Assembly (NCBI GenBank): GCA_009838915.1
Contig: VXQT01000013.1
Span: forward strand, 315,161 to 379,160
Source: Chloroflexota bacterium
Lineage (GTDB): Bacteria; Chloroflexota; Dehalococcoidia; Bin125
Direction: 5' to 3'
Length of the DNA stretch: 64,000 nt
Part shown: positions 6,945-33,939 of the stretch, piece by piece
Numbering within the stretch: position 1 is the first letter of the stretch
Layout of the letters: each line of letters starts with the position of its first letter
Made by a program: the position numbers and the translations under genes
Notes under the pieces: generated by a model
Told to the model about the DNA's origin: nothing
Databases searched by the model: none
Seen by the model: the letters and a program-made list of their open reading frames with translations, nothing else

Positions 6945-7070
6945 GTGACCCTCCGTAACCAAATCACGAGACTGCCCCCAAATGGTTGCATGATGGACCG
7001 ATCCCGATAACACTATCGACTTAGTTGATTAAACAGCAGTTCGGTCTAGCAACAAGGAGAGGGCAGGGAC

Positions 7071-7388
7071 ATGGCCAACGACAAACCGAAGACGAAGGTC
7101 CAGATAGCGAAGGCGATCGAGGAAAAGACGGGAATCGCCAGCCGCGACGTCAACGAGGTGCTCGATGGCCTCGCGGACGTGGTGCTGGAGGACCTGTCCA
7201 GCGGAGGTCCCGGCTCGGTGACCGTCGCCGGCCTGATCAAGGTGGACATCGTCGCGCAGACGGCGCGCCCGGAGCGCGAGGGTCGCAACCCGGCCACCGG
7301 CGAGACGATCACCATTGCCGCGCGGCCTGCACTGGATCGCGGAAAGGTACGCGTGCGAGCGCTCAAGCGCCTCCGCGACGTGCTCTAG
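7071..7388 (+). CDS. hup: HU family nucleoid-associated DNA-binding protein
   Basis: 105 aa, ...RNPATGETITIAARP... HU/IHF arm motif. Ribosome-binding site GGAGAGGG. It lies inside the spurious N-terminal extension of track ORF 7025..8599. Confidence 0.85.
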   Translation: MANDKPKTKVQIAKAIEEKTGIASRDVNEVLDGLADVVLEDLSSGGPGSVTVAGLIKVDIVAQTARPEREGRNPATGETITIAARPALDRGKVRVRALKRLRDVL

Positions 7389-7405
7389 CCGCCGCTGCGA
7401 CATCA

Positions 7406-8599
7406 ATGTCATCCCTTCCTGCTGCGAACGACGCCGGAAGGGAACTGATCGAGCGTCTGACTCCGCATCGGGAGCAGCTGGCGGATCTCGCGATCACGCA
7501 TGACCGCGAGGCCTCGTTTCCGTTTGCGTCCTTCGAATTGCTGCGCGAGATCGGCTGGTTCTCCGCGCCCATCCCGCGCGAGTACGGCGGCGACGAGTGT
7601 TCGCTGACCGATCTCGTCGCCGCACAGACTGCGCTGGCCAAGATCGATATGGCGCTCGCCTTCTCCTGCGGCATGCACCTGATGTCGGTTGGATCGGAGC
7701 GTTCGAATCGCAACTGGCCTGACCAGCTGCGCGAGCGCATCTTCCGCTCCGTCGTGGAGGACGGCGCACTCTGCAACCAGGTTGCGACGGAGCCCGATCT
7801 GGGTTCGCCGCAGGGCGGCGGACGCCCACAGACAGCGCTCACGCCGGGCGGACCGGGTCGCTGGCGGATCAACGGACGCAAGTCCTTCACCACGCTCGCG
7901 CCCGCGCTGACCTGGTTCCTGACCTACTGCGCAATCGAGGACGGATCGGGAATGCTCGCGCGGGTGGCCGTGCATCGCGACTCGCCCGGCTTGCGGATTG
8001 AAGAGACCTGGGACGTCGTCGGATTGCGATCAACAGGTTCGCACGATGTCTGGTACGAAGACGTTGCGGTGACGGACGACGAGTTTCTGGTTCGCCAGGA
8101 TCCCTCGCAGGCGGGCCAACGGCATGGCGACTTCGCCTGGTTCGCGCTGCTCGTCGCGGCGGCCTCGTTGGGCGTCGCGGAGGCCGCGCGCGACTACACG
8201 GTCGAGTTCGCGCGTCATCGTCGGCCTACGGGCGCGCCCGGCCCCATCGGCAGCATACCCATCGTGCGGGCACAGGTCGGCGAGATCGACCTTCGTCTGA
8301 TGTCGGCGCGGGCGCTGCTGCATGAAACCGCATCGGCATGGGATCGACTCGACGACGAGCAGCGCTACCAGCTCGGTCCGCGAGTCGCCGCGGCCAAGCT
8401 GCACGCCGGGGACATCGCCGTGGACGTGGTTGACCGCTGCATGAGACTGGTCGGCGGCGTTTCGCTGCACCGCTCGCAGCCGCTGGAGCGCTACTACCGA
8501 GACGTGCGAGGACCGCTGCACAACCCGCCGATCACGCCGCGCGGCCTCGAACTGATCGCCGCTGATGCGCTCGATCCGCTGCCCGACGTTGACTTGTAG
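7406..8599 (+). CDS. Acyl-CoA dehydrogenase family protein
   Basis: Same frame as track ORF 7025..8599; the true start is MSSLPAANDAG (ATG 7406) just after the HU stop. Acyl-CoA dehydrogenase-like N-terminal and middle/C-terminal regions (...YGGDECSLTDLVAAQ..., ...RCMRLVGGVSLHRSQPLERYYRDVR...). Confidence 0.8.
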   Translation: MSSLPAANDAGRELIERLTPHREQLADLAITHDREASFPFASFELLREIGWFSAPIPREYGGDECSLTDLVAAQTALAKIDMALAFSCGMHLMSVGSERSNRNWPDQLRERIFRSVVEDGALCNQVATEPDLGSPQGGGRPQTALTPGGPGRWRINGRKSFTTLAPALTWFLTYCAIEDGSGMLARVAVHRDSPGLRIEETWDVVGLRSTGSHDVWYEDVAVTDDEFLVRQDPSQAGQRHGDFAWFALLVAAASLGVAEAARDYTVEFARHRRPTGAPGPIGSIPIVRAQVGEIDLRLMSARALLHETASAWDRLDDEQRYQLGPRVAAAKLHAGDIAVDVVDRCMRLVGGVSLHRSQPLERYYRDVRGPLHNPPITPRGLELIAADALDPLPDVDL

Positions 8600-9748
8600 C
8601 TACTTCTTGAACGTCGAGAGCAGTCGCTCGGCAATACCCAGCCGTTGTTGGTCCAGCCCACCGGCTGTCAGTCTGAGCCACCGTACTTCGCGCGCCCATC
8701 GCTCCAGCGGCAGATCGGCGGAGCCGCCGGCCGGACCGTGCAGCTGCATCGCCCGATCGACAACAGTGTTGGCCGCATCCAGGGCGAAGGCCAATGCGGG
8801 CAGCGCCTGTTCCTCGAGCTCTTCGGCCGCCGAGAGATAGAGCGCGCGGGACGCGGATATGGCGATCTCGTTGTCGGCGAGGGCAAGTCTAGCCCGCTCG
8901 CCCTGCGCGAGCGGCGCTCCGTGTTCTCGACGCGACCAGACCACGCCTCGGCACATATCCTGGGCGGCCGACGCGATGCCAGTCAGATGCGCCGCCGTGA
9001 ACAGCCGTCGGCGCAGGACCAGGCCGTTGGCGAACGCCGGTCCGGCGTTGACCTCGCCCAAGACGTTCGACTCCGGCAGCTTCACCGCCGAGAGGTTCAG
9101 TTCCATCGTGTCGCGGCCCGTCGCGATTGTCGGCCAGGGTCTCCAGCGCTGAAAGCCCACTCGATCACACTCGACCACAATCGCAGAGATTCCCGACCGC
9201 TCGCCGGGCGTCTCCTCGGTGTTGCAGTAGACGATGCCGAAGTCGGCATTTGCGGCGTCGGCGACGAACAGCTTGGTGCCGTCCAGCATCCAACCCAACG
9301 GATGTCTCTGCGCCCGGATCCGCACGCCGTCGGTGGGCAGGAACGCGAGATCGGGGTCTTCCAGACCGCGGAAACACGACGCTTCGCGGCGCAGGAGCGG
9401 TTCGAGGAGTCGCGCACGCTGATCGTCGTCGCCGGCGTAGAGCTGCGGCGGCGGGTCGGGATCAAAGAGGCCATAGGCTGGATTGAGCGCGCCCGCTCGA
9501 TGCTGGGAGAGCTCTTCGGCGATGCGCAGGCGGTCGCCGTCCGGCAGATCGATCTGCGGACCTACCGATGCGCCGCGCGGCGCCATCAGGTGGTCAATGC
9601 CGAGCTCGCCCGCCCGTGCGAGCAGCGTGTCGAAGACGTCGTCCGGCAGGCGCGCGGCGTTGGCGTCGATCCGGCGCTCCTGCAGCCAGATTTCGTTGCG
9701 GACAAAGCGGCGAACGGCTTGAACGATCAGATCAAGTGATTCGCTCAC
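8600..9748 (-). CDS. Acyl-CoA dehydrogenase family protein
   Basis: 382 aa with an acyl-CoA dehydrogenase C-terminal domain (...AAQDMCRGVVWSRREHGAPLAQ...AMQLHGPAGG...). GTG start with a GGTGAG ribosome-binding site. Tail-to-tail and abutting the acyl-CoA dehydrogenase at 7406-8599. Confidence 0.75.
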   Translation of the reverse strand: MSESLDLIVQAVRRFVRNEIWLQERRIDANAARLPDDVFDTLLARAGELGIDHLMAPRGASVGPQIDLPDGDRLRIAEELSQHRAGALNPAYGLFDPDPPPQLYAGDDDQRARLLEPLLRREASCFRGLEDPDLAFLPTDGVRIRAQRHPLGWMLDGTKLFVADAANADFGIVYCNTEETPGERSGISAIVVECDRVGFQRWRPWPTIATGRDTMELNLSAVKLPESNVLGEVNAGPAFANGLVLRRRLFTAAHLTGIASAAQDMCRGVVWSRREHGAPLAQGERARLALADNEIAISASRALYLSAAEELEEQALPALAFALDAANTVVDRAMQLHGPAGGSADLPLERWAREVRWLRLTAGGLDQQRLGIAERLLSTFKK

Positions 9749-9766: not shown

Positions 9767-10981
9767 TCATCCCAGCGCGCCGCTCTCGGCCAGCGCCGCG
9801 ATCTCATCGTCCGACAATCCTGTCTCCCGCAGGACCTGTTGGGTGTGCTGCCCGGTCTTCGGAGCCGGTCCTCGCGGCCCGATATCCGCGCCCTCGATCT
9901 CGAACGGCGTGTTGAGCGTACGGAACCTGCCTTGCGCACCGTCGATCATGCTCCAGGCGCTCATTTCTTCCATCTGCGGGTCTGCAATGACCTCCGGCAA
10001 CTCGGCAACCGGAGCCCAGGTCAAGGCTTCGGCGTCCAGCCTTGAAATCCACTCGACGAGCGGCCTCGTGCGAAAGGTTGCGGCAATCTCGGATGTGAGT
10101 TTGGAGGTGTGTGCCGCCCGCCCGAGCAGGGTCGCGTAGCGCTCGTCGGCGGCCAGGTCCTCGCGACCCAGCGCCCGGCAGGCCGGCTCCCAGTAACGAT
10201 CGCCGGTCGGCATGACCAACATCAGCCAGCGCCCGTCGGCGGTCTCGTAGGAGTTGAACAGCGGATTGCCGGGCAGCACGCGATTGATTCGCTGCGGCTG
10301 TTGCTCCGTGATCAGCGCCGCCGAGACGTCCGAGCCAATCGTCCAGGCGCCCGTCCGTTGCAACGTCACCTCGACGTACTGTCCTTCACCCGTCATGTCG
10401 CGCAATCGCAGCGCCGCCAGCGTGCCTGCCAGCAGGTTGAGCGCCGTCGCGTGGTCGCCCTGTCCCGGACGGCAGGGCATCGGCGGACCGCCCGGCTCGC
10501 CGATCAGGCTCATGATCCCCGACCGCGACCAGAAGGCCGAGTAGTCGAAGGCGGTCTTGGCGTTGTCGGGCCCGCGAGTGCCGTAGCCGGTCAGCACCAC
10601 GTAGATCAGACCGGGATTGACCCGCTGCAGCGACTCGCGCGACAGGTCGTATCGCTCGATGCGCGGCGCGGTGAGGTTGGTGATGAAGATGTCGGAGTCG
10701 GCGACCATCCGCTTGACTGTCTCGCCGGCGCCAGGACGCTCCAGCGACAGCGCCACGCCGCGCTTGCCGCGGTTGTCCAGCTCAAACGGCGCGTCGACGT
10801 CGGTGTCCGGATCGAAGTCCGCCTTCTGGCCGCGCATCAGGGTTGTGCGCCAGGCGTCGCCTCCGGGATGTTCAACCTTGACCACGTCGGCGCCAAGATC
10901 AGCCATCAAGGCTGCTGCCGAGGGCGCGGCGAGCCAGTTTGCCACCTCCACAACCCGAATTCCCTCAAGCGGCGCAACCAT
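9767..10981 (-). CDS. CoA-transferase family III (CaiB/BaiF) protein
   Basis: N-terminus LEGIRVVEVANWLAAPSAAALMADLGADVVKVE and family-wide conservation. Lies 18 bp upstream of the acyl-CoA dehydrogenase at 8600-9748, so a probable operon. Confidence 0.88.
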   Translation of the reverse strand: MVAPLEGIRVVEVANWLAAPSAAALMADLGADVVKVEHPGGDAWRTTLMRGQKADFDPDTDVDAPFELDNRGKRGVALSLERPGAGETVKRMVADSDIFITNLTAPRIERYDLSRESLQRVNPGLIYVVLTGYGTRGPDNAKTAFDYSAFWSRSGIMSLIGEPGGPPMPCRPGQGDHATALNLLAGTLAALRLRDMTGEGQYVEVTLQRTGAWTIGSDVSAALITEQQPQRINRVLPGNPLFNSYETADGRWLMLVMPTGDRYWEPACRALGREDLAADERYATLLGRAAHTSKLTSEIAATFRTRPLVEWISRLDAEALTWAPVAELPEVIADPQMEEMSAWSMIDGAQGRFRTLNTPFEIEGADIGPRGPAPKTGQHTQQVLRETGLSDDEIAALAESGALG

Positions 10982-11043
10982 AGCCAGACCCTTCGTTAGC
11001 TTGCAGTCCGATCCTACTTGCCGCAGCAGTGAAGGAGCCGATC

Positions 11044-12408
11044 ATGCAGCACCGACCGACCGCCGCTCGCGTACCCGACTCGGGCATTTGCGAACTGTTC
11101 ACCCGCGAGGCGCGCTGGCAGTCCTGGCTCGACGTCGAGGCGGCCCTCGCACGCGCCGAGGCCGAGCTTGACATGATTCCCGCCGACGCCGCCGTGCAGA
11201 TCACCGAACACTGCCGGCTCGAGCTGTTGGACATGGAGAAGATTGAAGCAATTCTGGCCGTCACGGCGCATCCGCTGGTCCCACTGATCTGGGAGTTGGA
11301 CCGAATCCTCGGCGACGAGATCGGCGGCTACGTACACTGGGGCGCGACCACGCAAAACATCACTCAGACCGGCGACATCTTGCAACTGCGCAAGGCGCAC
11401 GAGATCATCCTGGGACAGATCGGGCAGGTCCTGGCGCTGCTCGCGCCCTTGGCAGAGCGCCACGCCGACGATCCTTGCGCCGGGCGCACGCACGGACAGC
11501 ACGCCGTCCCGGCAACCTTCGGCTACAAGGTCGGCGCATGGATCGACGAGCTCTGCCGACACGTCGAGCGGCTGCACGATGCTGAACCGCGCATCTTCGT
11601 AGCCATGCTAGGCGGCGCAGCCGGCACGCTCGCCTCATTCGGCGCGCCCGGTCTCGCAGTTCAGGAAGGCCTGGCGCGGCACCTCGACCTGCTGCCGATG
11701 CCGGTCCCCGGTCGCACCAGCCATGACCACCACGCCGAGTACGCCGCCATCCTGGCGATGCTTGCCGCTACCTCTCGCAAGATCGCGGACGAGACCTACA
11801 CGTTGATGAAGCCCGAGTTCGGCGAGATCGAGGAGCCGGTGCCGCCCGGCACCGTGGGCAGCAGCACGATGCCGCAGAAACGCAATCCCAAGCTCTCACA
11901 GGACATTCGCGCCGCCGCCGCGCAGGTGACGACGCTGTTCCCGCTCGCGCTCGACGCGATGCGCACGGAACACGAGGCCGACGGTTCGACCAGCGTCATG
12001 ATCGAGCGAGTCCTCCACGGCTCGATCGAGCTAGTCGGTGACATCCTCTCACGGCTGGCGGTCCTGTTCGACGGCATCGAGGTGAAGCCTGAGCGAATGC
12101 GACAGAACCTTGACCTGTCCGGCGGACTGATCATGAGCGAACGAATCATGCTCGCGCTGGGCGAGCGTGTCGGTCGTCAGCGCGCCCACGATGTGGTCTA
12201 CGAACACGCGCAGGACGCCGCCGTGCAACAGGTCTCGTTCCGCGATCTGCTGGTCGCTGACGAAGAAGTCCGCCGACATCTCTCGGAGGCGGAGCTCGAC
12301 CATTTGCTGGACCCAGCTTCGTACACAGGCGCATGTGGGGACATCGCCCGAGCACAGGCCCAACGGGCGCGCGAGTTCGCGGAAGGTCTAGACTCCGCCC
12401 AGAGCTGA
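11044..12408 (+). CDS. Fumarate-lyase superfamily enzyme (3-carboxy-cis,cis-muconate cycloisomerase / adenylosuccinate lyase-like)
   Basis: GSSTMPQKRNP signature motif. AGGAG ribosome-binding site 7 nt before the ATG at 11044 (track ORF began at 11029). Confidence 0.8.
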   Translation: MQHRPTAARVPDSGICELFTREARWQSWLDVEAALARAEAELDMIPADAAVQITEHCRLELLDMEKIEAILAVTAHPLVPLIWELDRILGDEIGGYVHWGATTQNITQTGDILQLRKAHEIILGQIGQVLALLAPLAERHADDPCAGRTHGQHAVPATFGYKVGAWIDELCRHVERLHDAEPRIFVAMLGGAAGTLASFGAPGLAVQEGLARHLDLLPMPVPGRTSHDHHAEYAAILAMLAATSRKIADETYTLMKPEFGEIEEPVPPGTVGSSTMPQKRNPKLSQDIRAAAAQVTTLFPLALDAMRTEHEADGSTSVMIERVLHGSIELVGDILSRLAVLFDGIEVKPERMRQNLDLSGGLIMSERIMLALGERVGRQRAHDVVYEHAQDAAVQQVSFRDLLVADEEVRRHLSEAELDHLLDPASYTGACGDIARAQAQRAREFAEGLDSAQS

Positions 12409-12439
12409 GCAACACCCCTGTTGCGGAATCGAGTGCAAC

Positions 12440-13123
12440 ATGTTGAAGTGGATCGTCCCCGTCACGAAGAAAGAGGGCATCGACAGCGATACCTTCTACG
12501 AGTTCTGGCGCTGCATCCATGCGCCGCACGTCGCCAACCTGGCCAAGCCGGAGCGCTACTGCGTCACGCTCTTCGACAGTACGGCGTCATTGGGCGGCGC
12601 GCCGGCTGCAGAGGAGATGGCCTACGACGGCCTGGCCGAACTCTGGTTCCGCGACTTCGAGCACTTCACCGACGCCTTCGGCGAGCATCGCGGAAATCTC
12701 CGCACGATCGACGGCTTCCAGGAACTGATCGAGCCGACAACCGACGCGATGTTCACGACCGAGCACTCTTATGTCAATGCACCAACGAATGAGGATGCCC
12801 TGAAGTGGGTCGCGTTCGTCAGGCGCGGTGAGAGCGTGACGCCCGACCAGCTCTTCGCCGCCTGGCGTAACGAGCACTCACCGAGAGTGACCAATACGAT
12901 CGCCCGATCCGAGGGCGCCTGCATCGGTTACACCACCTCACACGCCGACCAGGGCGGAGCGGACCCCACATGGGACGGCATCGCCTCCCTCTGGTATGCC
13001 GACGCCGGCGCTGTGGCGAGGGGTCTCCCGCCCTCGGACGAACCGGGCGATCCGTTCCCGGGACTGATCGACGGGGCGGCAACGGTCATCCTGCAGGGAC
13101 GCGAGATCACGGTCGTCTCCTAG
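12440..13123 (+). CDS. Tandem EthD-domain (Dabb-type alpha+beta barrel) protein
   Basis: Two internal repeats: ...FYEFWRCIHAPHV...YDGLAELWFRDFEHF... and ...LFAAWRNEHSPRV...WDGIASLWYADAGAV... Confidence 0.7.
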   Translation: MLKWIVPVTKKEGIDSDTFYEFWRCIHAPHVANLAKPERYCVTLFDSTASLGGAPAAEEMAYDGLAELWFRDFEHFTDAFGEHRGNLRTIDGFQELIEPTTDAMFTTEHSYVNAPTNEDALKWVAFVRRGESVTPDQLFAAWRNEHSPRVTNTIARSEGACIGYTTSHADQGGADPTWDGIASLWYADAGAVARGLPPSDEPGDPFPGLIDGAATVILQGREITVVS

Positions 13124-13155
13124 ACTGACAGGCAACGCTACGAACGGAGCCCGCG

Positions 13156-14493
13156 ATGCGATTTGGAATCTTCTACGAGCACCAACTACCCAAGCCGTGG
13201 AGCGAGGGACAGGAACAACAGCTCTTCCAGGACGCCCTCGATCAGGTCGAACTGGCTGACAAGCTGGGCATCGACCACGCCTGGGAAGTCGAACACCACT
13301 TCCTCGAGGAGTACTCCCACTCCTCCGCTCCGGAAGTGTTCCTGGCAGCCGCCTCGCAGCGAACGCAGAACATCCGCCTCGGGCACGGCATCGTGCTGAT
13401 GCCTCCGGGCTACAACCACCCCGCCCGCGTCGCCGAGCGGATCGCGACGCTCGATCTGGTCTCCAACGGGCGGGTCGAGTTCGGCACCGGCGAGTCGGCT
13501 TCACGCGCCGAACTCGAGGGCTACATGGTCAACCCGGAAGAGCGCCGCGCGATGTGGCGCGAGACCGTCGAGCAGGTCGCCAACATGCTGGCCATGAACC
13601 CGTATCCGGGCTACGAGGGCAAGTATTTCTCGATGCCGACTCGCAACGTCGTACCCAAGCCGGTGCAGAAGCCGCACCCGCCGCTCTGGGTTGCCTGCTC
13701 CAACCGTGACACGATTCACCTCGCCGCCAAGCTGGGCATCGGCGCGCTGACCTTCGCCTTCATCGATCCGGCCGAGGCCGAGCACTGGGTCAACGACTAC
13801 TACGAGACGATCAAGACCGAGTGCGTGCCAATCGGCCACACCGTGAACGCGAATATCGCCATGGTCTCCTCATTCTCGGTGCATCCCGACGCCGACGAGG
13901 CCGAGCGTCGCGGCGGCGATGGCTTCCGCTTCTTCCAGTTCGCCCTGGGGCATCACTATGCCGCCGGCATGCACAAGCCGGGCCGAACCAACATTTGGAA
14001 GGCCTGGGAGCAGCTCCGCGACACCTGGCCGAGCCAGGGCGGCGAGGGCGGCATTGGCACCCCGGACGAACTGCGCGAGCACCTGCGTATCTTCTCCGAG
14101 TGCGGCGTCGACCAGTCGGTCTTCATCCAGCAGGCCGGCAAGAACGAGCACGAGCACATCTGCGAGTCGCTCGAGATCTTCGCGCGCGATGTCATGCCTG
14201 AGTTCAAGGAGTTTGAGGCCGAGCGCGTCGCCAAGAAGGAAGAGGAACTCGCGCCCTACATCGAGGAAGCGTTCAAGCGCAAAGCCGAACGTAATGAGAT
14301 GATGGCCGAACTCTCGGACGAGGACATCCCCGTCTACCCGCCTTACGGCTTCGATGTGGTTACCAGCTCCAACCGTCTCAGCGAGGAGTACCACCACGAA
14401 GAGGCCGAAAAACGAGCACAGGAACAGGCCGCCCGCTTCGAGGAGATGAAGAAGACCGCCAACCTCGCGGTCGAACTGGGGGCGCGGGACTAG
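13156..14493 (+). CDS. LLM-class flavin/F420-dependent oxidoreductase (luciferase-like monooxygenase) with a charged C-terminal extension
   Basis: Luciferase-like TIM-barrel core ending ...ESLEIFARDVMPEF, followed by a ~90-aa E/K/R-rich tail. GGAG ribosome-binding site. Confidence 0.8.
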   Translation: MRFGIFYEHQLPKPWSEGQEQQLFQDALDQVELADKLGIDHAWEVEHHFLEEYSHSSAPEVFLAAASQRTQNIRLGHGIVLMPPGYNHPARVAERIATLDLVSNGRVEFGTGESASRAELEGYMVNPEERRAMWRETVEQVANMLAMNPYPGYEGKYFSMPTRNVVPKPVQKPHPPLWVACSNRDTIHLAAKLGIGALTFAFIDPAEAEHWVNDYYETIKTECVPIGHTVNANIAMVSSFSVHPDADEAERRGGDGFRFFQFALGHHYAAGMHKPGRTNIWKAWEQLRDTWPSQGGEGGIGTPDELREHLRIFSECGVDQSVFIQQAGKNEHEHICESLEIFARDVMPEFKEFEAERVAKKEEELAPYIEEAFKRKAERNEMMAELSDEDIPVYPPYGFDVVTSSNRLSEEYHHEEAEKRAQEQAARFEEMKKTANLAVELGARD

Positions 14494-14599: not shown

Positions 14600-15490
14600 T
14601 CAGGTCAGAGGATTGAGCGATACCGCGCTTCCGACCAGGTCAATCGCGGTGTGCAGCTTGCGCCGGCCGACAAATGCAGCGCGTCCGTACAGTTCACCGA
14701 TCGCTTCCACCGCTTCGAGCGTCGACATTGACGTGGTGATCAGCGCAAACGATTCCCGCTCGGCACGCTGCGCGACGTACGGCAGCGTCGGCTCGCCTCC
14801 GGCCAGGATCAGGCAGAGCGGTTCATAGTCGAGCGCGCCCAGGGCGATGTCGATCCGATCGTGTCGGGTGACCAACGTCTTGTCCGGGTACTTGCGGAAG
14901 TAGTCCATGCCCTCGTGCGCGCTGACCGGCCCGATTACGAGGTCTCGGGACGACTCGTCGAACAGCGCTTCATCTCCCGAGAGCGCGCCTTCGATTGCCG
15001 GCGCGATATCGTTGACCGTCGGCGCAGCAAGGTGTCGATCCTGCGGCAGCGCGCACACTGCACTTGCTGTACTTGCTCCCATGCCGCTCACCCTCGCGAT
15101 CGCCTCCGCGTCGCCGTACTGCGGCACGGCGTTGATAACCACCAGATCCGGAGCGAGCGACTCCAGCGCTCGTGCCACAGTGTCGTCGTCGGCCTCGCCG
15201 TGGCGAGTCACGAGCACCGTCCGATCACCTTCGATACCCGAGGCGTCACCTGCCTCAATCACCACGTGGTCGGTATCAAATGCGATGTCCGTCGGCGCGA
15301 CCGGCTGCCCACTGCTGCGCACGCCGTTGACCTGCGAGAGCTGCACGGCGTCGGCGGACGCGGAGTCCGAGTCGCCGACGCGCTCGAGCCGAACCGTGGC
15401 GCCGGTCGCTCGGAGCGCCGCGGCGATACCTGCGGCAACCACCGACTTACCGTCTCCGGGCAGCGTGGATGTGACGAGAATGCTGGCCAC
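14600..15490 (-). CDS. Standalone phosphotransacetylase-N-terminal-like protein (BioD/CobQ-type P-loop + DRTGG domain)
   Basis: P-loop TSTLPGDGKS and a DRTGG-like LILAGGEP motif. Start reassigned to GTG at 15490 (VASILV...) with a GGGGAG ribosome-binding site; track ORF began at 15556. Confidence 0.6.
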   Translation of the reverse strand: MASILVTSTLPGDGKSVVAAGIAAALRATGATVRLERVGDSDSASADAVQLSQVNGVRSSGQPVAPTDIAFDTDHVVIEAGDASGIEGDRTVLVTRHGEADDDTVARALESLAPDLVVINAVPQYGDAEAIARVSGMGASTASAVCALPQDRHLAAPTVNDIAPAIEGALSGDEALFDESSRDLVIGPVSAHEGMDYFRKYPDKTLVTRHDRIDIALGALDYEPLCLILAGGEPTLPYVAQRAERESFALITTSMSTLEAVEAIGELYGRAAFVGRRKLHTAIDLVGSAVSLNPLT

Positions 15491-15655
15491 GTGAGGCTCC
15501 CCATCTCCATTTGCGCACCTGGCCCTGTTGGGCCTCAGCACAGAGCCTAGAGCCAAGCGAGCATACGCGCTGAGGCCCGGGGCAGGCCATCGCTACCGCA
15601 GGCGTGGCTAGACTGACGGCATCGTCCGCTCAGAATCGTCAGCGAGGCCAGCGAG

Positions 15656-15886
15656 ATGTCCAGGCAGCCTGGCTCGGAACGCGAAGTATGGCCGCCGCCT
15701 GCGCCTGACTCCCCCCGCGCCAGAAGTCGCCGCCCGCCTCCCGAACGTCACGCGCGCTGGATTGATCCCGGAAATCGCGCCGACGAACCGCGCGAAGACG
15801 CTCCGAAGCTGCTCTGGTGGATACTTGGCGCATTGCTGCTGTTCGGCGTGTTCTCCGTCCTGATCCGCGTGTTCCTGGTCACCTAG
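15656..15886 (+). CDS. Hypothetical small membrane protein (Pro/Arg-rich N-terminus, one C-terminal TM helix)
   Basis: 76-aa ORF in a 518-bp divergent intergenic region. C-terminus LLWWILGALLLFGVFSVLIRVFLV has coding-like GC3. GAGG lies upstream of the ATG. Confidence 0.35.
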   Translation: MSRQPGSEREVWPPPAPDSPRARSRRPPPERHARWIDPGNRADEPREDAPKLLWWILGALLLFGVFSVLIRVFLVT

Positions 15887-16008
15887 CCACCGTAGTCCTG
15901 GTCTTCGGTATCTTGATTGACAATCCGCGATTGACGCTGCGGGTCTTCCGCCGCGCCCCGGCGACACTTGCGTTGCGGCCGCGACAGGCACGGGATCGGA
16001 GTTCCAGG

Positions 16009-18489
16009 ATGACGAACGAGGGGTCGGACACGCTGTTGCAGGGCGTGCGAGTGCTGGATCTGGCGACGCCGCGGGCGGAGATGACCGGACGAGTCCTCGC
16101 CGACATGGGCGCGGAAGTGATCAAGGTTGAGCCATCTGCAGGCGCCGACGCCCGTCGGCTTCCTCCGTTCAGCGACTCGGAACCCGGCCGCTCGCTGTAC
16201 TGGGCGCAGATGGGATTAGGCAAGCGCAGCGTCGTCATCGACCTGGACTCCGCGCCGGGCCGCGATGAGTTCCGTTCCCTGCTCGCAACCGCCGATGTGC
16301 TGATCGAGTCGTTCGATCCCGGCACGATGGCGAGCCTGGGACTGGGCTATGACGATGTCAAGAACGAACTCCCGGATCTGATCTACGTATCGGTGACGCC
16401 GTACGGACAGGATGGACCCCACGCCGACCGTCCGGCAACGGATCTGACGCTCGAGTCTGCCGGTGGGCTCGTCGGCCTGCAGGGTGACGGCGACCGTCCA
16501 CCGGTACCGGTGGGATTGCCGCAGGCATCGATCCATGCCGGCGTCCAAGCGGCGGCTGACACCTCGATTGCCTTGCGCGAGCGTGAGCTGTCGGGTCTCG
16601 GTCAGCACCTCGATGTGTCGATGCAGGCAGCAGTCGTATGGACGCTGATGAACGCGACCGGGTTTCCGCCAAACACGGGCGGCGATCCGCCCGGCACCTG
16701 CGCTGAGCGCGGCGGCGGCGAAGCGAACTCCGCCGGGGCGGTCATGGGCGTCCATCCTTGCCTCGACGGCTACATCGTGTTCAGCATCGTGCCCGGCGGA
16801 CTGGGACTGCGACACTCAACCCTGGTCCTCAAGTGGATTGAGGAAGAGGGTGAGCTCACTGGCGAGTTGGAGGGCGTTGACATCGACGAGTGGGCGGCCA
16901 AGATCGCTCGTCTTGTGACCGAGGATCCGGCCGAATTGGGTCGACAGGTCTTGATCGCGACCGAGAACATGCATCAGTTCGTCGCCAAGAAAACGATGGC
17001 CGAGTGTTTCGAGCGAGCGGTGCGGGACAGCTTCATGATGGCTCCGCTCTACACGATGGAGGACATCGCCAACGACTCGCACCTGGCGGCCCGAGACTTC
17101 TGGGTGGATATCGACGGACATCGATATCCCGGACCGTTCGCCAAGCTCTCGGAGACGCCGCTGCAGCTCACGCGACCGGCGCCGGCGCTTGGGCAGGACC
17201 AACATCTGCTCGCCGAGGTCGACGGTGCGCGGAGGCAGAAGTCGCGCGCTCAAATCTCCGCCAACGGCGTGCGCGGCGCGGACGGCGGCGCGCTGCATGG
17301 CGTCAAGATCGCCGATTTTGCCTGGGTCGGCGTGGGACCGCTGATCTCGAAGTCGATGGCCGACCACGGCGCAACCGTCGTGCACATCGAGTCGGCGACG
17401 CGGCCGGATGTGCTCCGACTCGCCCCGCCGTTCAAGGACAACGAGCCGGGCATGGACCGTGCTCAGTTCATGGCCAACTTCAACTCGTCAAAGATTGGGG
17501 TCGCGCTACGCCTTGACACGGAACAAGGACACGAATACGCGCGCCAGCTCATCGAGTGGGCCGACGTCGTGGTTGAATCGTTCACTCCGGGCACGATGAA
17601 GCGGTTCGGCTTCGACTTCGCCACGCTGAGCCAGGAACGTCCCGAGCTGATCATGCTCAGCACCTGCCTGCGCGGCCAATCCGGCCCGGAGTCGACATAT
17701 CCCGGCTTCGGTCTGCAAGGCGCCTGCCTCTCAGGCTTGCATAGGATCACCGGCTGGCCCGACCGTCAACCCGCGGGTACCTGGGGCGCGTACACGGACT
17801 TCATTAATCCCCGCTTCGGGTCCGGCGTGCTGGCCGCAGCAATTCGGCATCGCGACCTGACCGGTAAGGGACAGTACATCGACCTGGCACAGAGCGAAGC
17901 GGGTATCCACTTCGCAGCCCCGTTACTCCTCGATTATCTCGAAAACGGCCGCGTCGCGCGGGCGCCGGGCCACGACTCGATGTACGCGGCGCCCAACGGC
18001 GTGTTCCGCGTCGGCGAGGGCGAACGCTACGTGGCGATCGCCAGCGAAACCGCCGAGCAGTGGAGCGCGCTGCGGGATGCCGCCGGACTGGAACCCTGGT
18101 CGGGAGCCGAGTACGACGACCTTTCGGAGAGGATCGCGGCCAAATCGGAGATTGAGGCCGCGCTTGCCGACTGGTGCGCTCCGCAGACCGCCGATGCGGT
18201 GGTCGAGTGCCTGACTTCCCTCGGCGTGCCGGCGTCGGTCGTGCAATGGCCTTCCGACCTGTACCAGGATGCTCAGCTCAAGCACCGAAACTTCTTCGTC
18301 ACGTTGAATCACTCGGTGATGGGGCCGACACCATACGACGGGCTGGTCACCAGGTTCTCGGGCGGCACCGCGAACCTGCGTCGCGCGGCGCCGGCGATCG
18401 GCGAGCACACGCACTACGTACTTTCGGAGATTCTCAACGCGTCGGACGACGAGATCACGGATGCACTGGTTGCCGGCGTGTTGCAGTAG
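16009..18489 (+). CDS. Fused tandem CoA-transferase family III protein (two CaiB/BaiF domains)
   Basis: 826 aa. Domain 1 begins LQGVRVLDLATPRAEMTGRVLADMGAEVIKVE; domain 2 begins LHGVKIADFAWVGVGPLISKSMADHGATVVHIE. Start reassigned to MTNEGSD (ATG 16009, GGAG ribosome-binding site). Confidence 0.8.
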   Translation: MTNEGSDTLLQGVRVLDLATPRAEMTGRVLADMGAEVIKVEPSAGADARRLPPFSDSEPGRSLYWAQMGLGKRSVVIDLDSAPGRDEFRSLLATADVLIESFDPGTMASLGLGYDDVKNELPDLIYVSVTPYGQDGPHADRPATDLTLESAGGLVGLQGDGDRPPVPVGLPQASIHAGVQAAADTSIALRERELSGLGQHLDVSMQAAVVWTLMNATGFPPNTGGDPPGTCAERGGGEANSAGAVMGVHPCLDGYIVFSIVPGGLGLRHSTLVLKWIEEEGELTGELEGVDIDEWAAKIARLVTEDPAELGRQVLIATENMHQFVAKKTMAECFERAVRDSFMMAPLYTMEDIANDSHLAARDFWVDIDGHRYPGPFAKLSETPLQLTRPAPALGQDQHLLAEVDGARRQKSRAQISANGVRGADGGALHGVKIADFAWVGVGPLISKSMADHGATVVHIESATRPDVLRLAPPFKDNEPGMDRAQFMANFNSSKIGVALRLDTEQGHEYARQLIEWADVVVESFTPGTMKRFGFDFATLSQERPELIMLSTCLRGQSGPESTYPGFGLQGACLSGLHRITGWPDRQPAGTWGAYTDFINPRFGSGVLAAAIRHRDLTGKGQYIDLAQSEAGIHFAAPLLLDYLENGRVARAPGHDSMYAAPNGVFRVGEGERYVAIASETAEQWSALRDAAGLEPWSGAEYDDLSERIAAKSEIEAALADWCAPQTADAVVECLTSLGVPASVVQWPSDLYQDAQLKHRNFFVTLNHSVMGPTPYDGLVTRFSGGTANLRRAAPAIGEHTHYVLSEILNASDDEITDALVAGVLQ

Positions 18490-18550
18490 CCGCCAGCATC
18501 CGGACATCCCCTAAACTGCCAGCATCGAATTGCAGGGAAGGACTTGACAG

Positions 18551-19732
18551 ATGGGTAAGCGCACCATGCGCGGCGAGACGGCGATCATCGGCGTCGGTGA
18601 GACAACCTACTACAAGCGCGGACGCTCGCCGGATGCCGAGTTCAAACTCGTGATCGAGGCGATCCTCAAGGCCAGCGCTGACGCAGGCATCGACCCGCGC
18701 GAGATCGACGGCTTCGCCTCCTACTCCAACGACCGCAACGACCCCTCGCGGATCGCCGCGGCGTTGGACATCAAGGATCTGCGCTTCTCCAATATGGAAT
18801 GGGGCGGCGGCGGCGGCGGCGGTTCGGCGGCCTGCGCGCACGCCGCTGCCGCAGTCGCGACCGGACTCGCCGACACGGTGGTGGTGTTCAGAGGACTGGC
18901 TCAGGGTCAGTTCGGACGCTTCGGTCAGGGCGCACGTGTGCCTCACGTGCGCGGCGACCAGGCGTACACGGCACCCTATGGGCTGATGTCGCCGGCGCAG
19001 TCCTTCGCGATGCGTGTCCACCGCCTGTTCGACGACCACGGGATCACGCAGGACACGCTGAAGGCTTGCTCGCTCGCGTCCTACCACCACGCGCAGAACA
19101 ACCCCCGCGCCGTCATGTACGGCCGACCGCTCTCGCCCGAGGACTACGACGCCTCGCGCTGGATCGTGGAGCCCTTCCACCTGTTCGACTGCTGCCAGGA
19201 GAACGACGGCGGCGCAGCGATGATCTTTGTCTCGGCGGATCGCGCCAAGGACTTCGCCAAGACCCCGGTCTACTTCCTCGGCGGCGCCGTCGGCTCCGGC
19301 AATCGGGCGGGCTCCGGTTCGCACAACGCCACCGACTACGCCACCTCGAACTTCAAGACGGTTGCGCCGCGCATGTACGACATGGCCGAGGTCAAGCCGG
19401 AGGAAGTCGATGTCGCGCAGGTGTATGAGAACTTCACCGGTGGCGTCGTGATGAGCATCATCGAGCACGGCCTGACCAGCTACGAAGAGGCAAACGACTT
19501 CATCACCTTCGAGAACCTCACCGCGCCGGCCGGCAAGATGCCGATCAACACCAGCGGCGGCAACCTCGCCGAGTGCTACATGCACGGGCTGGAACTGAAC
19601 ATCGAAGCCGTGCGCCAGGTGCGCGGCGAGTCCTGCAACCAGGTACCGGACGTGAACGTCTCGTTGGTCGCATCCGGTCCGATGGTCACCCCGGTCTCCG
19701 ACATGATTGTCGGTTCTGAGGCGGTGCTCTAA
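18551..19732 (+). CDS. Thiolase-like lipid-transfer protein (SCP-x/Ltp-type nonspecific thiolase)
   Basis: 393 aa with thiolase-fold N- and C-terminal regions (...NTSGGNLAECYMHGLE...). Paired with the downstream DUF35 gene. Confidence 0.8.
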   Translation: MGKRTMRGETAIIGVGETTYYKRGRSPDAEFKLVIEAILKASADAGIDPREIDGFASYSNDRNDPSRIAAALDIKDLRFSNMEWGGGGGGGSAACAHAAAAVATGLADTVVVFRGLAQGQFGRFGQGARVPHVRGDQAYTAPYGLMSPAQSFAMRVHRLFDDHGITQDTLKACSLASYHHAQNNPRAVMYGRPLSPEDYDASRWIVEPFHLFDCCQENDGGAAMIFVSADRAKDFAKTPVYFLGGAVGSGNRAGSGSHNATDYATSNFKTVAPRMYDMAEVKPEEVDVAQVYENFTGGVVMSIIEHGLTSYEEANDFITFENLTAPAGKMPINTSGGNLAECYMHGLELNIEAVRQVRGESCNQVPDVNVSLVASGPMVTPVSDMIVGSEAVL

Positions 19733-20181
19733 TGGCGAATCCTCCAAGGTACTACCTGGGCGAGGGCATGCCCGCCCCTGCTCCGGCGATTGACGGACTC
19801 GACACTGAGTACTGGGAAGGTCTCAAGCGGCACAAGCTGTTCGTTCAGCACTGCCACACCTGCGACCGCCCACAGTTCGGGCCCGAATGGGTCTGCCACA
19901 TCTGCCACAGCTTCGATCTTGGCTGGCGAGAGGTCGAGGGCAACGGACGGATATTCTCCTGGGAACGGGTCTGGCACCCGGTCCATCCTGCGCTGCAGGA
20001 CTCCTGCCCCTACCTCGTTGTCCTGGTCGAGTTGCCGAACCACGAAAACGTCCGCATGGTCGGAAACTTGCTCGGCGACCCGATGCAGACGGTTCAGATT
20101 GGCGCTGAAGTCCGCCCCGTCTTCGAGGACCACGACGGCGACGATCCGTACACGCTCGTGCATTGGGAAGTCGTCGAATAG
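19732..20181 (+). CDS. DUF35 Zn-ribbon/OB-fold protein (ChsH2/thiolase-partner type)
   Basis: CHTCDRPQFGPEWVCHIC zinc ribbon plus an OB-fold. The start overlaps the thiolase stop (TAATG). Confidence 0.8.
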   Translation: MANPPRYYLGEGMPAPAPAIDGLDTEYWEGLKRHKLFVQHCHTCDRPQFGPEWVCHICHSFDLGWREVEGNGRIFSWERVWHPVHPALQDSCPYLVVLVELPNHENVRMVGNLLGDPMQTVQIGAEVRPVFEDHDGDDPYTLVHWEVVE

Positions 20182-20261
20182 CAGGCGCAACCTCACTTCG
20201 CACGCGATTGCCGCGGTTCTGACAGCGTCGCGGGCATTACTTGGCCCGCGTGCATCCGGCC

Positions 20262-21104
20262 CTAGTCGCCTGTGGCAGCCTGTGCTCGCAGAAACTCCGT
20301 GACCAACGCCGCCGTCCGCTCGGGATGTTGGATGTGCGGGAAGTGACCGCAGTCGTCCCAGACGTGGATCTCAGCGTCGGCGAAGGTCTCCTGCTGGCGC
20401 TCGGCGTATCTCCAACTGATGAACGGGTCGTTCTTGCCGTAGATCACCAGCGCCGGAAGATCGCGGGGCGACAGCGCCTGGCCCAGGATGTGTCCCTCGT
20501 CGAAGTCGGTGTTGCGATACAGCTCCAGCGTGACCCGGCGCGTGTCGCGGTCGTCCTCGGTGATCAGTTCGTCCAGCCACTGCGGATGCAGCCCGCGCGG
20601 GTTGCCCCAGCGCATGAACAGCTTGAAGGCGGGACGGGTCGTAATCAACTGGAGGATCTCGCCGGCGTGCTTCGTGCGCCAGATGTTCGCCACCAGGTTG
20701 CCGGGATAGTCCTCCAGCACGCCGCCGTCGAGCAGCATGACCGACGCGCACTTGTCCGGGTTCATTGCCGCCCACATCAGGCCTGTCTGTGTATGGAAGC
20801 TATGCATCAACAGATGGACTCGCCTGAGCCCGAGTTCGTCCAGTGCGGGTGACAGCCAGGTCTGATAGCCCTCGATCGAGTAGGGGAAGCCTTTCGGCTT
20901 GTCGGCCCGACCGAATCCGGGCAAATCGATCGCCACGACCCGCATGACCTCACTGATCGCAGGCATCACGAACTGGAAGTCGCGGCCCGAGCCCGGGACT
21001 GAGTGCAGACAGACGACGGCCTCTTCGCTGTTGTCGTCGCCAAGTTCCGTAACCACTCCAGCGACGCCGTCAATCGTGAGCCGCGACTCCCTGAGCTCAG
21101 TCAT
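20262..21104 (-). CDS. Alpha/beta-hydrolase fold protein
   Basis: Start reassigned to MTELRESRLTIDGV (ATG 21104). Canonical alpha/beta hydrolase topology (...AIDLPGFGRADKP..., ...VWDDCGHFPHIQHP...). Confidence 0.75.
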   Translation of the reverse strand: MTELRESRLTIDGVAGVVTELGDDNSEEAVVCLHSVPGSGRDFQFVMPAISEVMRVVAIDLPGFGRADKPKGFPYSIEGYQTWLSPALDELGLRRVHLLMHSFHTQTGLMWAAMNPDKCASVMLLDGGVLEDYPGNLVANIWRTKHAGEILQLITTRPAFKLFMRWGNPRGLHPQWLDELITEDDRDTRRVTLELYRNTDFDEGHILGQALSPRDLPALVIYGKNDPFISWRYAERQQETFADAEIHVWDDCGHFPHIQHPERTAALVTEFLRAQAATGD

Positions 21105-21700: not shown

Positions 21701-23957
<2,257 letters not shown>

Positions 23958-23971
<14 letters not shown>

Positions 23972-27525: not shown

Positions 27526-27600
27526 CCCCCCGTAGCTCAGGGGATAGAGCACCGGTTTCCTAAACCGCGCGCGGAGGTTCGAATCCTCCCGGGGGGACCA
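27526..27600 (+). tRNA. tRNA-Arg (anticodon CCT)
   Basis: Cloverleaf by hand: acceptor CCCCCCG/CGGGGGG, D-arm GCTC..GAGC, anticodon loop TTCCTAA, T-arm GGAGG-TTCGAAT-CCTCC, encoded CCA. C1:G72 is unusual; coordinates +/-2. Confidence 0.75.
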
Positions 27601-33536: not shown

Positions 33537-33613
33537 AGGGGTGTAGCTCAGTTTGGCAGAGCAACGGTCTCCAAAACCGTAGGTCGCGGGTTCGAGTCCT
33601 GCCACCCCTGCCA
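33537..33613 (+). tRNA. tRNA-Trp (anticodon CCA)
   Basis: Acceptor AGGGGTG/CACCCCT, anticodon loop CTCCAAA, T-arm GCGGG-TTCGAGT-CCTGC, encoded CCA; coordinates +/-2. Confidence 0.85.
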
Positions 33614-33631
33614 GAGCAACCCACCAGCCAT

Positions 33632-33719
33632 GCCGAGGTGGTGGAACTGGTAGACACGCAGCGTTGAGGGCGCTGTGCCCATTGCGGGCGTGGAGGTTCG
33701 AGTCCTCTCCTCGGCACCA
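33632..33719 (+). tRNA. tRNA-Leu (anticodon GAG)
   Basis: Acceptor GCCGAGG/CCTCGGC, anticodon loop TTGAGGG, long variable arm, encoded CCA; coordinates +/-2. Confidence 0.85.
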
Positions 33720-33769
33720 ACACTCGGACTACCACCGATTGCCGCCCGGTGGTTACAATGTCCCCACCA

Positions 33770-33844
33770 GCGGAAGTGGCGCAGCGGTAGCGCGTCTCCT
33801 TGCCAAGGAGAAGGTCGAGGGTTCGAATCCCTTCTTCCGCTCCA
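33770..33844 (+). tRNA. tRNA-Gly (anticodon GCC)
   Basis: Acceptor GCGGAAG/CTTCCGC, anticodon loop TTGCCAA, T-arm GAGGG-TTCGAAT-CCCTT, encoded CCA; coordinates +/-2. Confidence 0.85.
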
Positions 33845-33865
33845 CAACAACGCACCTGCGCACCA

Positions 33866-33939
<74 letters not shown>

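Follow-up and report, generated by a model that had tools for sequence, protein, structure and literature searches.

Described two-domain and heteromeric relatives

Subunits of family III CoA-transferases fold only as interlocked pairs with the active sites at the subunit interface, and their nucleophile is an aspartate, numbered D169 in Frc and D212 in SUGCT. Frc, YfdW, CaiB and SUGCT each form a symmetric homodimer that has two active sites. In contrast, the benzylsuccinate CoA-transferase BbsEF is built from two separate polypeptides, BbsE and BbsF, and was reportedly described by Leutwein and Heider in 2001 as an alpha2beta2 enzyme. In its structure (PDB 9fn0) the position of the nucleophile is taken by a tyrosine in chain A and by Asp178 in chain B. 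A literature search for a paper on the BbsEF structure found none. BbsEF works together with a thiolase-fold protein that contains DUF35 and cleaves C-C bonds, as the transferase analysed here probably does too.

Unfused E-type and F-type genes also lie next to each other on a Variovorax sp. SRS16 plasmid (WP_162571374 and WP_162571373) and on a plasmid of A. aromaticum EbN1, where the pair sits beside UbiD/UbiX in what we take to be the o-phthalate succinyl-CoA transferase cluster. In both pairs the first gene has Phe or Tyr in place of the Asp and the second gene has the Asp. Downstream of the Variovorax pair come a thiolase-family gene and a gene for a Zn-ribbon/OB-fold (DUF35) protein, in a module that adds MaoC and enoyl-CoA hydratase genes, while the EbN1 pair adjoins a decarboxylase system and not an aldolase.

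[quoted passage not shown] 2018, Nat Commun, PMC6006322), and the characterised members are the DMSP CoA-transferase/lyase DddD and PtmU4, which functions in thioacid formation (PMC6006322). The protein analysed here is like these enzymes in that two CoA_transf_3 domains follow each other in a single polypeptide of about 800 aa, joined by a linker with little conservation. As in these enzymes, the halves resemble each other most towards their N-termini, and the conserved catalytic Asp belongs to the C-terminal domain. Its domains (residues 10-397 and 429-801) are laid out much as those of Endozoicomonas DddD (1-416 and 439-821; PMC7174347). The first-pass annotation had implied that such a fusion is novel. 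This is not supported, since the two-domain type is known (PMC6006322): the fused architecture is a documented, widespread and abundant enzyme type, and the fusion itself carries little weight. The host here belongs to the Chloroflexota, whereas a 2017 census of two-domain enzymes consisted mostly of Actinobacteria and Proteobacteria. SAR202 and other Dehalococcoidia have large CaiB/BaiF expansions, whose proposed function is to channel recalcitrant organic matter into CoA-dependent oxidation (PMC5395668).

The fused gene is intact

The CoA-transferase gene occupies positions 16009..18489 on the forward strand of the window, that is, the whole stretch of 64,000 nucleotides. The reading frame is free of stops from 15817 to 18489 and the ATG at 16009 gives a protein of 826 aa. 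Gene callers on identical contigs also give 826 aa, and homologues share a start at the same MT... N-terminus. Pfam matched PF02515 twice in the protein without overlap (E=6.7e-164). When each half was scanned alone, the N-terminal half (aa 10-397, positions 16036..17199, + strand) covered positions 1-365 of the 366 in the profile with 259 bits and the C-terminal half (aa 429-801, positions 17293..18411, + strand) covered all 366 with 292 bits. This bears out the earlier claim that two family III domains are fused in one 826-aa chain. The N-terminal motif ascribed to both halves, V/I-x-D-x-(T/A)-x-x-x-(A/V)-G-P, was found in the C-half (IADFAWVGVGP) but not in the N-half (VLDLATPRAEMTG), which is without the G-P.

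Between the domains lies a linker (aa 398-428, positions 17200..17292, + strand) that is read through in frame and varies in length and sequence. In an alignment of 37 homologues it contained indels and showed no conservation. A frameshift or a lost stop in this region could in principle have merged two adjacent genes, and unfused adjacent pairs with 4-nt overlaps do occur in other bacteria. However, the same 826-aa protein was called from an identical gene on 7 contigs that belong to separate assemblies, and fused homologues of about 820 aa number in the hundreds, with identity as low as 30%. We therefore do not regard the fusion as a frameshift artefact. The two halves were also contiguous in 80 of the 80 loci fetched, which come from separate species-representative genomes with a few MAGs supplying two loci each. 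The junction, which had been flagged for a check of the reading frame, is sound, and we rule out a merging of two genes by assembly or sequencing as having a negligible chance of being correct.

The length of the protein is typical of its relatives. At the 90% identity level more than 100 clusters have lengths of 810-850 aa, down to 55% identity, and at 50% clustering the length is 740-900 aa in 130 of the 150 best representatives. Almost none of the distant fused homologues in these clusters carries a protein name, and one relative of 418 aa is labelled 'BbsF subunit'.

The single chain was modelled with AlphaFold2 (pLDDT 86.3, pTM 0.91). Only the linker was disordered, with pLDDT of 49-71. 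In this model the pTM of 0.91 implies that the halves are confidently placed relative to each other, a placement compatible both with pairing within one chain and with a domain-swapped dimer. A Foldseek search with the model returned the BbsEF chains as top matches, with a TM(target) of 0.92 for 9fn0_B against the whole model.

The two halves differ in nucleophile and ancestry

We found that only one of the two halves has retained the family III nucleophile. In the C-half, Asp597 (codon 17797..17799 on the + strand, verified) is invariant in 37/37 close homologues and in 131/131 fused homologues of the wide family. In the alignment it matches BbsF D178, which appears in the title of PDB 9fol ('D178-CoA adduct'), where 178 is the residue count from the alignment of the C-half to 9fn0_B. 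In the N-half the position of the family's Asp is taken by Ser174 (codon 16528..16530 on the + strand, verified). In alignments this serine faces the catalytic Asp in 4ed9, Brucella Frc and Rv3272 (D175) and a Tyr in 9fn0_A. Position 174 is Ser, Ala, Gly, Pro or Tyr in the 37 close homologues and acidic in none of them; in the wide family it is Tyr, Phe or Trp in 88 of 131 and acidic in only 7. The first-pass annotation had proposed looking for the catalytic Asp in both halves, and of these the C-half keeps it and the N-half has lost it. Judged from these alignments, the N-half is predicted to be non-catalytic and the C-half to be catalytic, with Asp597 as the putative nucleophile.

Of the solved structures, BbsEF comes closest to both halves. 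The N-half has its best PDB match in 9fn0_A (E=1.9e-40) and the C-half in 9fn0_B (E=4.9e-65), and these matches are reciprocally best, with each half only about 32-33% identical to its match. The halves are about 25-34% identical to each other; BLASTP of half against half gave 34% identity over residues 10-208 versus 13-215 and little elsewhere. In a neighbour-joining tree of the halves, built on Poisson-corrected distances, the split between N-type and C-type sequences was recovered in 200/200 bootstraps, the exact N clade in 191/200 and the exact C clade in 174/200. The first genes of the split pairs fell with the N-halves and the second genes with the C-halves, at 35-39% identity to the matching halves for the Variovorax and EbN1 proteins. 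The arrangement is like that of BbsEF, where an E-type subunit without the Asp pairs with an F-type subunit that has it, and the order of the fused halves, E-type then F-type, is the gene order of the split pairs. It is unlike BbsEF and the split pairs in that one open reading frame replaces two separate polypeptides, or two genes overlapping by 4 nt. By the tree and the matches, the two halves are ancient paralogues that correspond to the E-type and the F-type subunit of heteromeric enzymes, so the protein is best described as a fused heterodimer with one predicted active site.

Each half is a full-length PF02515 domain, which is what a covalent homodimer with two working active sites would show, and the first-pass annotation had spoken of fused twins. 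We rule out two equivalent halves, a reading that we consider very improbable, on the grounds that the N-half is without the family's nucleophile, identity between the halves is low, and they belong to different ancient clades. A further suggestion, that the protein is a covalent pseudo-dimer with asymmetric active sites, agrees with Ser174 in one half and Asp597 in the other. The protein shares with Frc, YfdW, CaiB and SUGCT the fold, the Asp nucleophile (in the C-half) and presumably the obligatory pairing of domains; it differs from those symmetric homodimers as an asymmetric chain with, as its alignments predict, a single site. This links the two-domain family to the heteromeric BbsEF type. 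Since the N-half corresponds to the inactive E subunit and the C-half to the catalytic F subunit, annotation should not count two active sites or use the name 'CaiB'.

The CoA-transferase gene is part of a conserved three-gene arrangement

Downstream of the CoA-transferase gene, and in the same orientation, lies a gene for an Ltp2-type thiolase-fold retro-aldolase-like protein of 393 aa (18551..19732, + strand; PDB 6ok1_A, E=1.3e-72). It is followed by a gene for a stand-alone DUF35 protein with a Zn-ribbon and an OB-fold (19732..20181, + strand; PF12172 and PF01796), whose start codon begins at the last base of the stop of the aldolase-like gene. The PDB matches of the DUF35 protein include 9myr_B (8e-18) and 6ok1_B, ChsH2(DUF35) (4e-15). 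In the aldolase-like protein the residues corresponding to Tyr294 and Tyr344 of TcLtp2 are conserved, the YDHF motif reads YENF, and a Gly-rich stretch, placed by eye and not by alignment, stands at the expected site of the thiolase Cys nucleophile.

We also considered whether the downstream pair could be a BbsAB-type thiolase and rejected this, as the match to 6ok1 (1e-72) is far stronger than that to the BbsB-like 7pxp (6e-14) and both Ltp2 tyrosines are kept. The BbsB model gave 66 bits against a cutoff of 750. The locus departs from the BbsEF system in its thiolase-fold partner. It is also unlike that system in having no bbs operon context (BbsCD dehydrogenase, BbsG, BbsH, BbsAB thiolase) and in a host that is not a known anaerobic toluene degrader. 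The same transferase, thiolase-family and DUF35 module is present in Variovorax.

The catabolic neighbourhood that the first-pass annotation described is largely there: two single-domain family III genes (9767-10981 on the - strand and 42521-43705 on the + strand), acyl-CoA dehydrogenase genes (7025-8599 and 8600-9748) and the DUF35 gene. Its 'thiolase' is more precisely an Ltp2-aldolase-like protein.

Synteny with the fused gene was observed for the Ltp2-like gene in 45, for the DUF35 gene in 42 and for an upstream DRTGG gene in 43 of the 80 loci. The Ltp2-like and DUF35 genes accompany the fused gene at every locus where the fused protein is at least 69% identical, except L035, and two loci (L007 and L039) end too early to judge. 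Identity ranges from 87 to 99% for the aldolase in those loci in which it ranges from 70 to 93% for the transferase. Relatives at 50-60% identity have no aldolase neighbour, and we therefore limit any pathway reading to this orthologous group. The specific feature of this locus is that the three genes, for the transferase, the Ltp2-type retro-aldolase and the stand-alone DUF35 protein, are kept together, and they make up a concrete unit that could be expressed and screened for substrates.

Compared by published descriptions, these partner genes set the locus apart from both DddD and PtmU4. An enzyme of the PtmU4 kind would convert an acyl-CoA to a thiocarboxylic acid, and PtmU4 has the same two-domain architecture with the Asp in the C-terminal domain (PMC6006322). 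However, the thioacid cassette includes an acyl-CoA synthetase (PtmA3), and no such gene or other AMP-binding enzyme is among the annotated flanking genes here. The thioacid group has been reported only from Actinobacteria, Beta- and Gammaproteobacteria (PMC6006322), and the Asp of PtmU4 is at 430 and not near 600, which implies a different domain layout. Formation of a thioacid is thus a very remote prospect for this protein.

A proposed activate-and-cleave pathway

From the architecture, the half that keeps the Asp, the evolutionary type of the halves and the synteny we infer a catalytic cycle, a role for the N-half, pairing within the chain, a class of substrate and a recycling of CoA. Our main reading, to which we give a probability of roughly 0.65, is that the protein unites the subunits of a heteromeric family III CoA-transferase in a single chain and operates in an activate-and-cleave pathway. 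Two partner domains would be joined in one chain by the flexible linker of about 30 residues. By the standard family III mechanism Asp597 would attack the donor acyl-CoA to give an aspartyl mixed anhydride and then an Asp-CoA thioester, from which CoA would pass to the incoming carboxylic acid. The N-half with Ser174 would most likely act as a structural partner that the interlocked fold cannot do without and that helps to wall a single acid-binding pocket, giving one active site per polypeptide.

The transferase is probably co-transcribed with the Ltp2-type retro-aldolase and its DUF35 partner. Its substrate would be a bulky or branched acid, probably beta-hydroxylated or hydrated at a later step, which it would attach to CoA. 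The beta-hydroxyacyl-CoA would then be split by the aldolase into a carbonyl compound and a short acyl-CoA, and the latter could be reused as CoA donor in an ATP-independent cycle. The three-gene arrangement suggests such an ATP-free activate-and-cleave module in sponge-associated Dehalococcoidia. More tentatively, the three proteins might form a self-contained ATP-free lyase cycle in these bacteria acting on a bulky beta-hydroxy acid, such as a sterol-like or alicyclic side-chain acid, with the Asp-less N-half pocket perhaps binding a ligand or adding a second chemical step. If so, it would follow the logic of citrate lyase or of the itaconate/citramalyl-CoA route, built from a steroid-type aldolase.

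The three-gene unit contains neither a hydratase nor a dehydrogenase, and the route to the beta-hydroxyacyl-CoA is therefore unexplained unless the substrate is already hydroxylated. Seven of 7 matches to NCBIfam equivalogs (succinate-glutarate, mesaconate, formyl-CoA, oxalate and carnitine CoA-transferases) were below cutoff, the best with 301 bits against a cutoff of 750. No equivalog thus assigns a donor or an acceptor.

Strong conservation around the Asp-less site, which a purely structural N-half does not obviously require, speaks against a structural role alone: Q172, H176, G178 and Q180 are invariant in the 37 close homologues. The conserved pocket could add a lyase- or hydratase-type step or hold a second ligand, making the enzyme bifunctional. 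A second step in the N-half would fill the hydratase gap of the operon, where the Variovorax version has its MaoC and enoyl-CoA hydratase genes. There is precedent in DddD, a two-domain enzyme with dual CoA-transferase/lyase activity (PMC6006322, PMC7174347), and Landry 2017 noted that some SAR202 CaiB proteins best match DddD and speculated on lyase functions. However, the residues of the N-half site are not kept across the wider two-domain family, in which position 174 is variable and H176 is retained in only 58 of 131. The N-half also evolves faster, being more diverged than the C-half in 78 of 79 loci. DddD is reported to be an outgroup to the other two-domain enzymes (PMC6006322). Its operon has a DMSP transporter and genes for processing 3-hydroxypropionate, and no gene of its partner families (BCCT transporter, alcohol- or aldehyde dehydrogenase) was found among the Pfam-annotated flanking genes from about 7 to 21 kb of the window. 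We consider a bifunctional enzyme unlikely.

Family III also includes intramolecular CoA transferases (Mct- or ThnP-like) and racemases or epimerases (MCR-like) (PMC9813914, PMC11659651), and for such an enzyme the substrate would be a dicarboxylic or 2-methyl-branched acyl-CoA. MCR chains are among the PDB matches of the protein, and there are weak NCBIfam matches to 2-methylfumaryl-CoA isomerase. However, the latter reach 100 bits against a cutoff of 725 and are far weaker than the BbsEF/SUGCT-type matches. Similarly, the MCR match has an E value of about 1e-17 compared with 1e-65 for BbsF, and all PDB matches that are characterised enzymes with such activities have a single domain. An activity of this sort appears quite improbable, and we retain the single-chain heteromeric CoA-transferase as our reading of the protein.

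Other features of the locus

A promoter scan of positions 15400-20500 gave no promoter-like site, and a terminator scan of the same interval gave one terminator-like match, inside the ORF, which is fewer than in shuffled sequences. An Rfam scan of the 450-bp intergenic region upstream of the gene returned no match. Other neighbours of the CoA-transferase gene encode a luciferase-like monooxygenase and an alpha/beta hydrolase. The syntenic upstream gene is divergently transcribed (14600..15556, - strand) and encodes a DRTGG-domain protein (PF07085). It matches the Pta model NF004167 over positions 195-365, below cutoff, and resembles the N-terminal part of phosphate acetyltransferase.

An intact gene encodes two CaiB/BaiF domains in one chain

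The fused transferase lies within a stop-free plus-strand ORF (15817-18489), and translation of the window from the ATG at 16009 gives a protein of 826 aa. A Pfam search returned two PF02515 (CoA-transferase family III) matches in this protein (E = 6.7e-164). When the halves were searched alone, both the N-half (aa 10-397, 259 bits) and the C-half (aa 429-801, 292 bits) covered the full 366-position profile. The two matches do not overlap, which bears out the first-pass annotation of two CaiB/BaiF domains in one chain.

That annotation also raised the concern that a frameshift at ~17200-17300 had joined two adjacent genes. We found that the junction between the halves (nt 17200-17292, aa 398-428) reads in frame throughout and that the identical 826-aa protein is a single gene call on 7 contigs from separate assemblies, with the same neighbours (e.g. 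ENA ERZ23492297 and NCBI GCA_009845245.1). Clustering at 90% identity gave over 100 groups of relatives 810-850 aa long, with identities as low as 55%. In an exhaustive HMMER search of a database of 1.84 billion representatives, 130 of the best 150 matches were 740-900 aa long and aligned end-to-end at 30-51% identity. Both halves were also contiguous in all 80 loci taken from assemblies of other species' genomes; each locus came from a separate species-representative genome, save for a few MAGs that gave two. The in-frame read, the 7 identical contigs, the fused homologues and the 80 loci together exclude a frameshift artefact.

The two halves are not equivalent

BLASTP aligned the N-half to the C-half with 34% identity across the first ~200 residues and little further on. 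BbsEF is a classic heteromeric family III enzyme, and the best PDB match of the N-half was its E-type chain (9fn0_A, E = 1.9e-40, residues 8-382) and that of the C-half its chain B (9fn0_B, E = 4.9e-65); cross-matches of the halves were far weaker. In the alignment Asp597 of the C-half occupies the nucleophile column, opposite Asp178 of chain B, the residue named in the 9fol title 'D178-CoA adduct'. In the N-half, Ser174 stands where 4ed9, Brucella Frc and Rv3272 have their nucleophile Asp (D175 in Rv3272, mutated in 5yiy), and 9fn0_A has Tyr in this column. Among 37 close fused homologues position 174 was S, A, G, P or Y and never acidic, whereas D597 was present in all 37. The C-half Asp was likewise found in 131/131 fused representatives at 30-51% identity; at the N-half position the same proteins had Y, F or W in 88 cases and an acidic residue in only 7. 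The first-pass annotation had asked whether both halves conserve the catalytic Asp; only the C-half does, and with the limited identity of the halves this contradicts a symmetric twin. The asymmetry proposed for a covalent pseudo-dimer is real; the equivalent twins give way to what is most likely a fused heterodimer, and the design is not novel.

The seven wide-family proteins with Asp or Glu aligned at the N-half 'dead' position were P0170, P0130, P0126, P0146, P0169, P0225 and P0262, where alignment drift is possible. Judged by these, a minority of two-domain enzymes might have two nucleophiles.

Each domain had also been said to begin with a motif ending in G-P. This holds for the C-half (IADFAWVGVGP) and fails for the N-half (VLDLATPRAEMTG). 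Within its own orthologous group the N-half (aa 15-27, window 16009-16100) has a conserved PRAEM(T/A)G instead of the family x-x-x-A-G-P loop; the BbsE-like chain 9fn0_A retains G-P. This loop is a second sign of a remodelled CoA or acid pocket in the N-half.

C-half identity exceeded N-half identity in 78 of 79 loci (mean gap 6.3 points), which fits a catalytic C-half with a less constrained partner.

The halves correspond to the subunits of E/F-type heteromers

A neighbour-joining tree was built from the halves, four single-domain enzymes, two unfused gene pairs and the BbsE-like and BbsF-like chains, whose sequences were taken from HMMER alignments. Every N-half fell with the first subunits and every C-half with the second. 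Bootstrapping separated the two sets in 200/200 replicates and recovered the exact clades in 191/200 (N) and 174/200 (C); finer groupings near BbsEF had only ~41% support.

The unfused pairs came from a tblastn search of plasmids, in which two loci had two adjacent genes spanning the query. In Variovorax sp. SRS16, 416-aa and 412-aa 'CoA transferase' genes overlap by 4 nt; downstream of them come, in order, genes for a thiolase-family protein, a Zn-ribbon/OB-fold (DUF35) protein, a hypothetical protein and a MaoC dehydratase. Directly upstream is a fused 847-aa paralogue, with only an enoyl-CoA hydratase gene between it and the pair (plasmid 3, locus L081, 1611-7450); this cluster would lend itself well to a natural comparison of fused with split forms. 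The pair on Aromatoleum aromaticum EbN1 plasmid 2 has a TRAP transporter and the UbiD/UbiX decarboxylase genes as neighbours, a locus that we take to be the anaerobic o-phthalate cluster; the succinyl-CoA:phthalate CoA-transferase of that cluster consists of two subunits. At the nucleophile position, the first gene of either pair encodes Phe or Tyr and the second Asp.

AlphaFold2 modelled the full chain from the 37-sequence alignment with a mean pLDDT of 86.3 and a pTM of 0.91, a value that requires confident mutual placement of the halves; low confidence was limited to the termini, loop 237-244 and the linker. The top Foldseek PDB matches were BbsEF chains (target-normalised TM 0.92-0.93 for B/D, 0.79 for A), followed by SUGCT. 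From this model we infer that the two halves interlock.

The transferase is encoded with an Ltp2-like aldolase and a DUF35 protein

A gene for a 393-aa thiolase-fold protein (18551-19732, +) begins 61 nt past the fused gene, and the start codon of a 149-aa DUF35 gene (19732-20181, +) begins at the last base of its stop. The thiolase-fold protein is nearest to TcLtp2 (6ok1_A, 1.3e-72); an assignment as BbsB was rejected (7pxp, 6e-14). TcLtp2 is a steroid side-chain retro-aldolase with catalytic Tyr294, in a YDHF motif, and Tyr344 (PMC12329534). Equivalents of both tyrosines are kept here, with YDHF replaced by YENF, which changes the oxyanion-hole His to Asn. A Gly-rich stretch lies at the expected site of the thiolase Cys nucleophile, as placed by eye without alignment. 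The DUF35 protein matches ChsH2(DUF35).

The order of a divergent DRTGG gene followed by the transferase, Ltp2-like and DUF35 genes is kept in 42-45 of the 80 loci, with the DRTGG gene upstream in 43. At transferase identities of 69% or more this order is seen everywhere except in L035, where the next 6 kb contain no aldolase, and in L007 and L039, whose sequence stops too soon to judge. These neighbours are mostly absent from relatives at 50-60% identity. In the same loci the aldolase is 87-99% identical at the amino acid level versus 70-93% for the transferase. An upstream single-domain CaiB gene with an acyl-CoA dehydrogenase was found in 39 of the 80 loci. The DRTGG protein (14600-15556, -) resembles the N-terminal non-catalytic part of phosphate acetyltransferase and could be a regulatory or acyl-CoA-sensing partner.

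Proposed working and place among known enzymes

Family III monomers interlock and fold only as a pair, with the active site at the interface and an Asp that forms covalent intermediates (PMC10871334, PMC6006322). Applied here, this suggests that the fused transferase is most likely one chain that forms a heterodimer with a single active site. The donor acyl-CoA would be attacked by Asp597 to give a mixed anhydride and then an Asp-CoA thioester, from which CoA would go to the acceptor acid; the N-half would act as a structural partner that the fold cannot do without, and would form part of the pocket wall. The product acyl-CoA may be the substrate of the Ltp2-type aldolase, whether made straight from a beta-hydroxy acid or hydrated elsewhere first, and the short acyl-CoA freed by the aldolase may be reused as CoA donor. 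Such recycling would parallel the bbs pathway, in which BbsAB regenerates succinyl-CoA for BbsEF.

According to Dong et al., DddD is the only characterised two-domain example before PtmU4, PtmU4 homologues have a conserved Asp in the C-terminal domain, Asp430 was mutated to test whether it is required, and a 2017 database search gave 2,401 two-domain homologues (PMC6006322). The CaiB domains of Endozoicomonas DddD span 1-416 and 439-821 (PMC7174347). Landry et al. (2017) reported CaiB/BaiF expansions in SAR202, some with DddD as best match. The fused transferase has all the defining features of the two-domain family, the annotated flanking genes fit the context of neither DddD nor PtmU4, and it reached none of the NCBIfam equivalog cutoffs. 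We therefore class it as an uncharacterised protein of known architecture, for which only the connection to E/F-type heteromers and the pairing with the aldolase and DUF35 protein are new.

The surrounding window

The 450-bp intergenic region between the divergent DRTGG and transferase genes (15557-16008) had no Rfam match and no sigma-70-like promoter; a 76-aa ORF called within it (~15656-15886) had no Pfam match. Upstream genes (11029-14493) encode a 445-aa luciferase-like monooxygenase, an EthD-family protein (12440-13123) and an adenylosuccinate-lyase/3-carboxymuconate-cycloisomerase-like lyase that scores under every NCBIfam cutoff, in line with the expansions of oxidative enzymes reported for SAR202-type Chloroflexota. 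Two further family III genes encode a single domain (9767-10981, -; 42521-43705, +), and both have the catalytic Asp region; the latter, distant from the operon, most resembles oxalate/YfdE-type transferases (347 bits; cutoff 522). Four tRNA genes lie within 400 nt (33537-33936) and one is isolated (27526-27597). GC content is flat throughout the window (0.63-0.67). The housekeeping genes on either side, PEP carboxylase (3355-6237, 960 aa, full-length PF00311) and a PcrA/UvrD helicase (21701-23971), place the operon in ordinary chromosome with no obvious mobile element.
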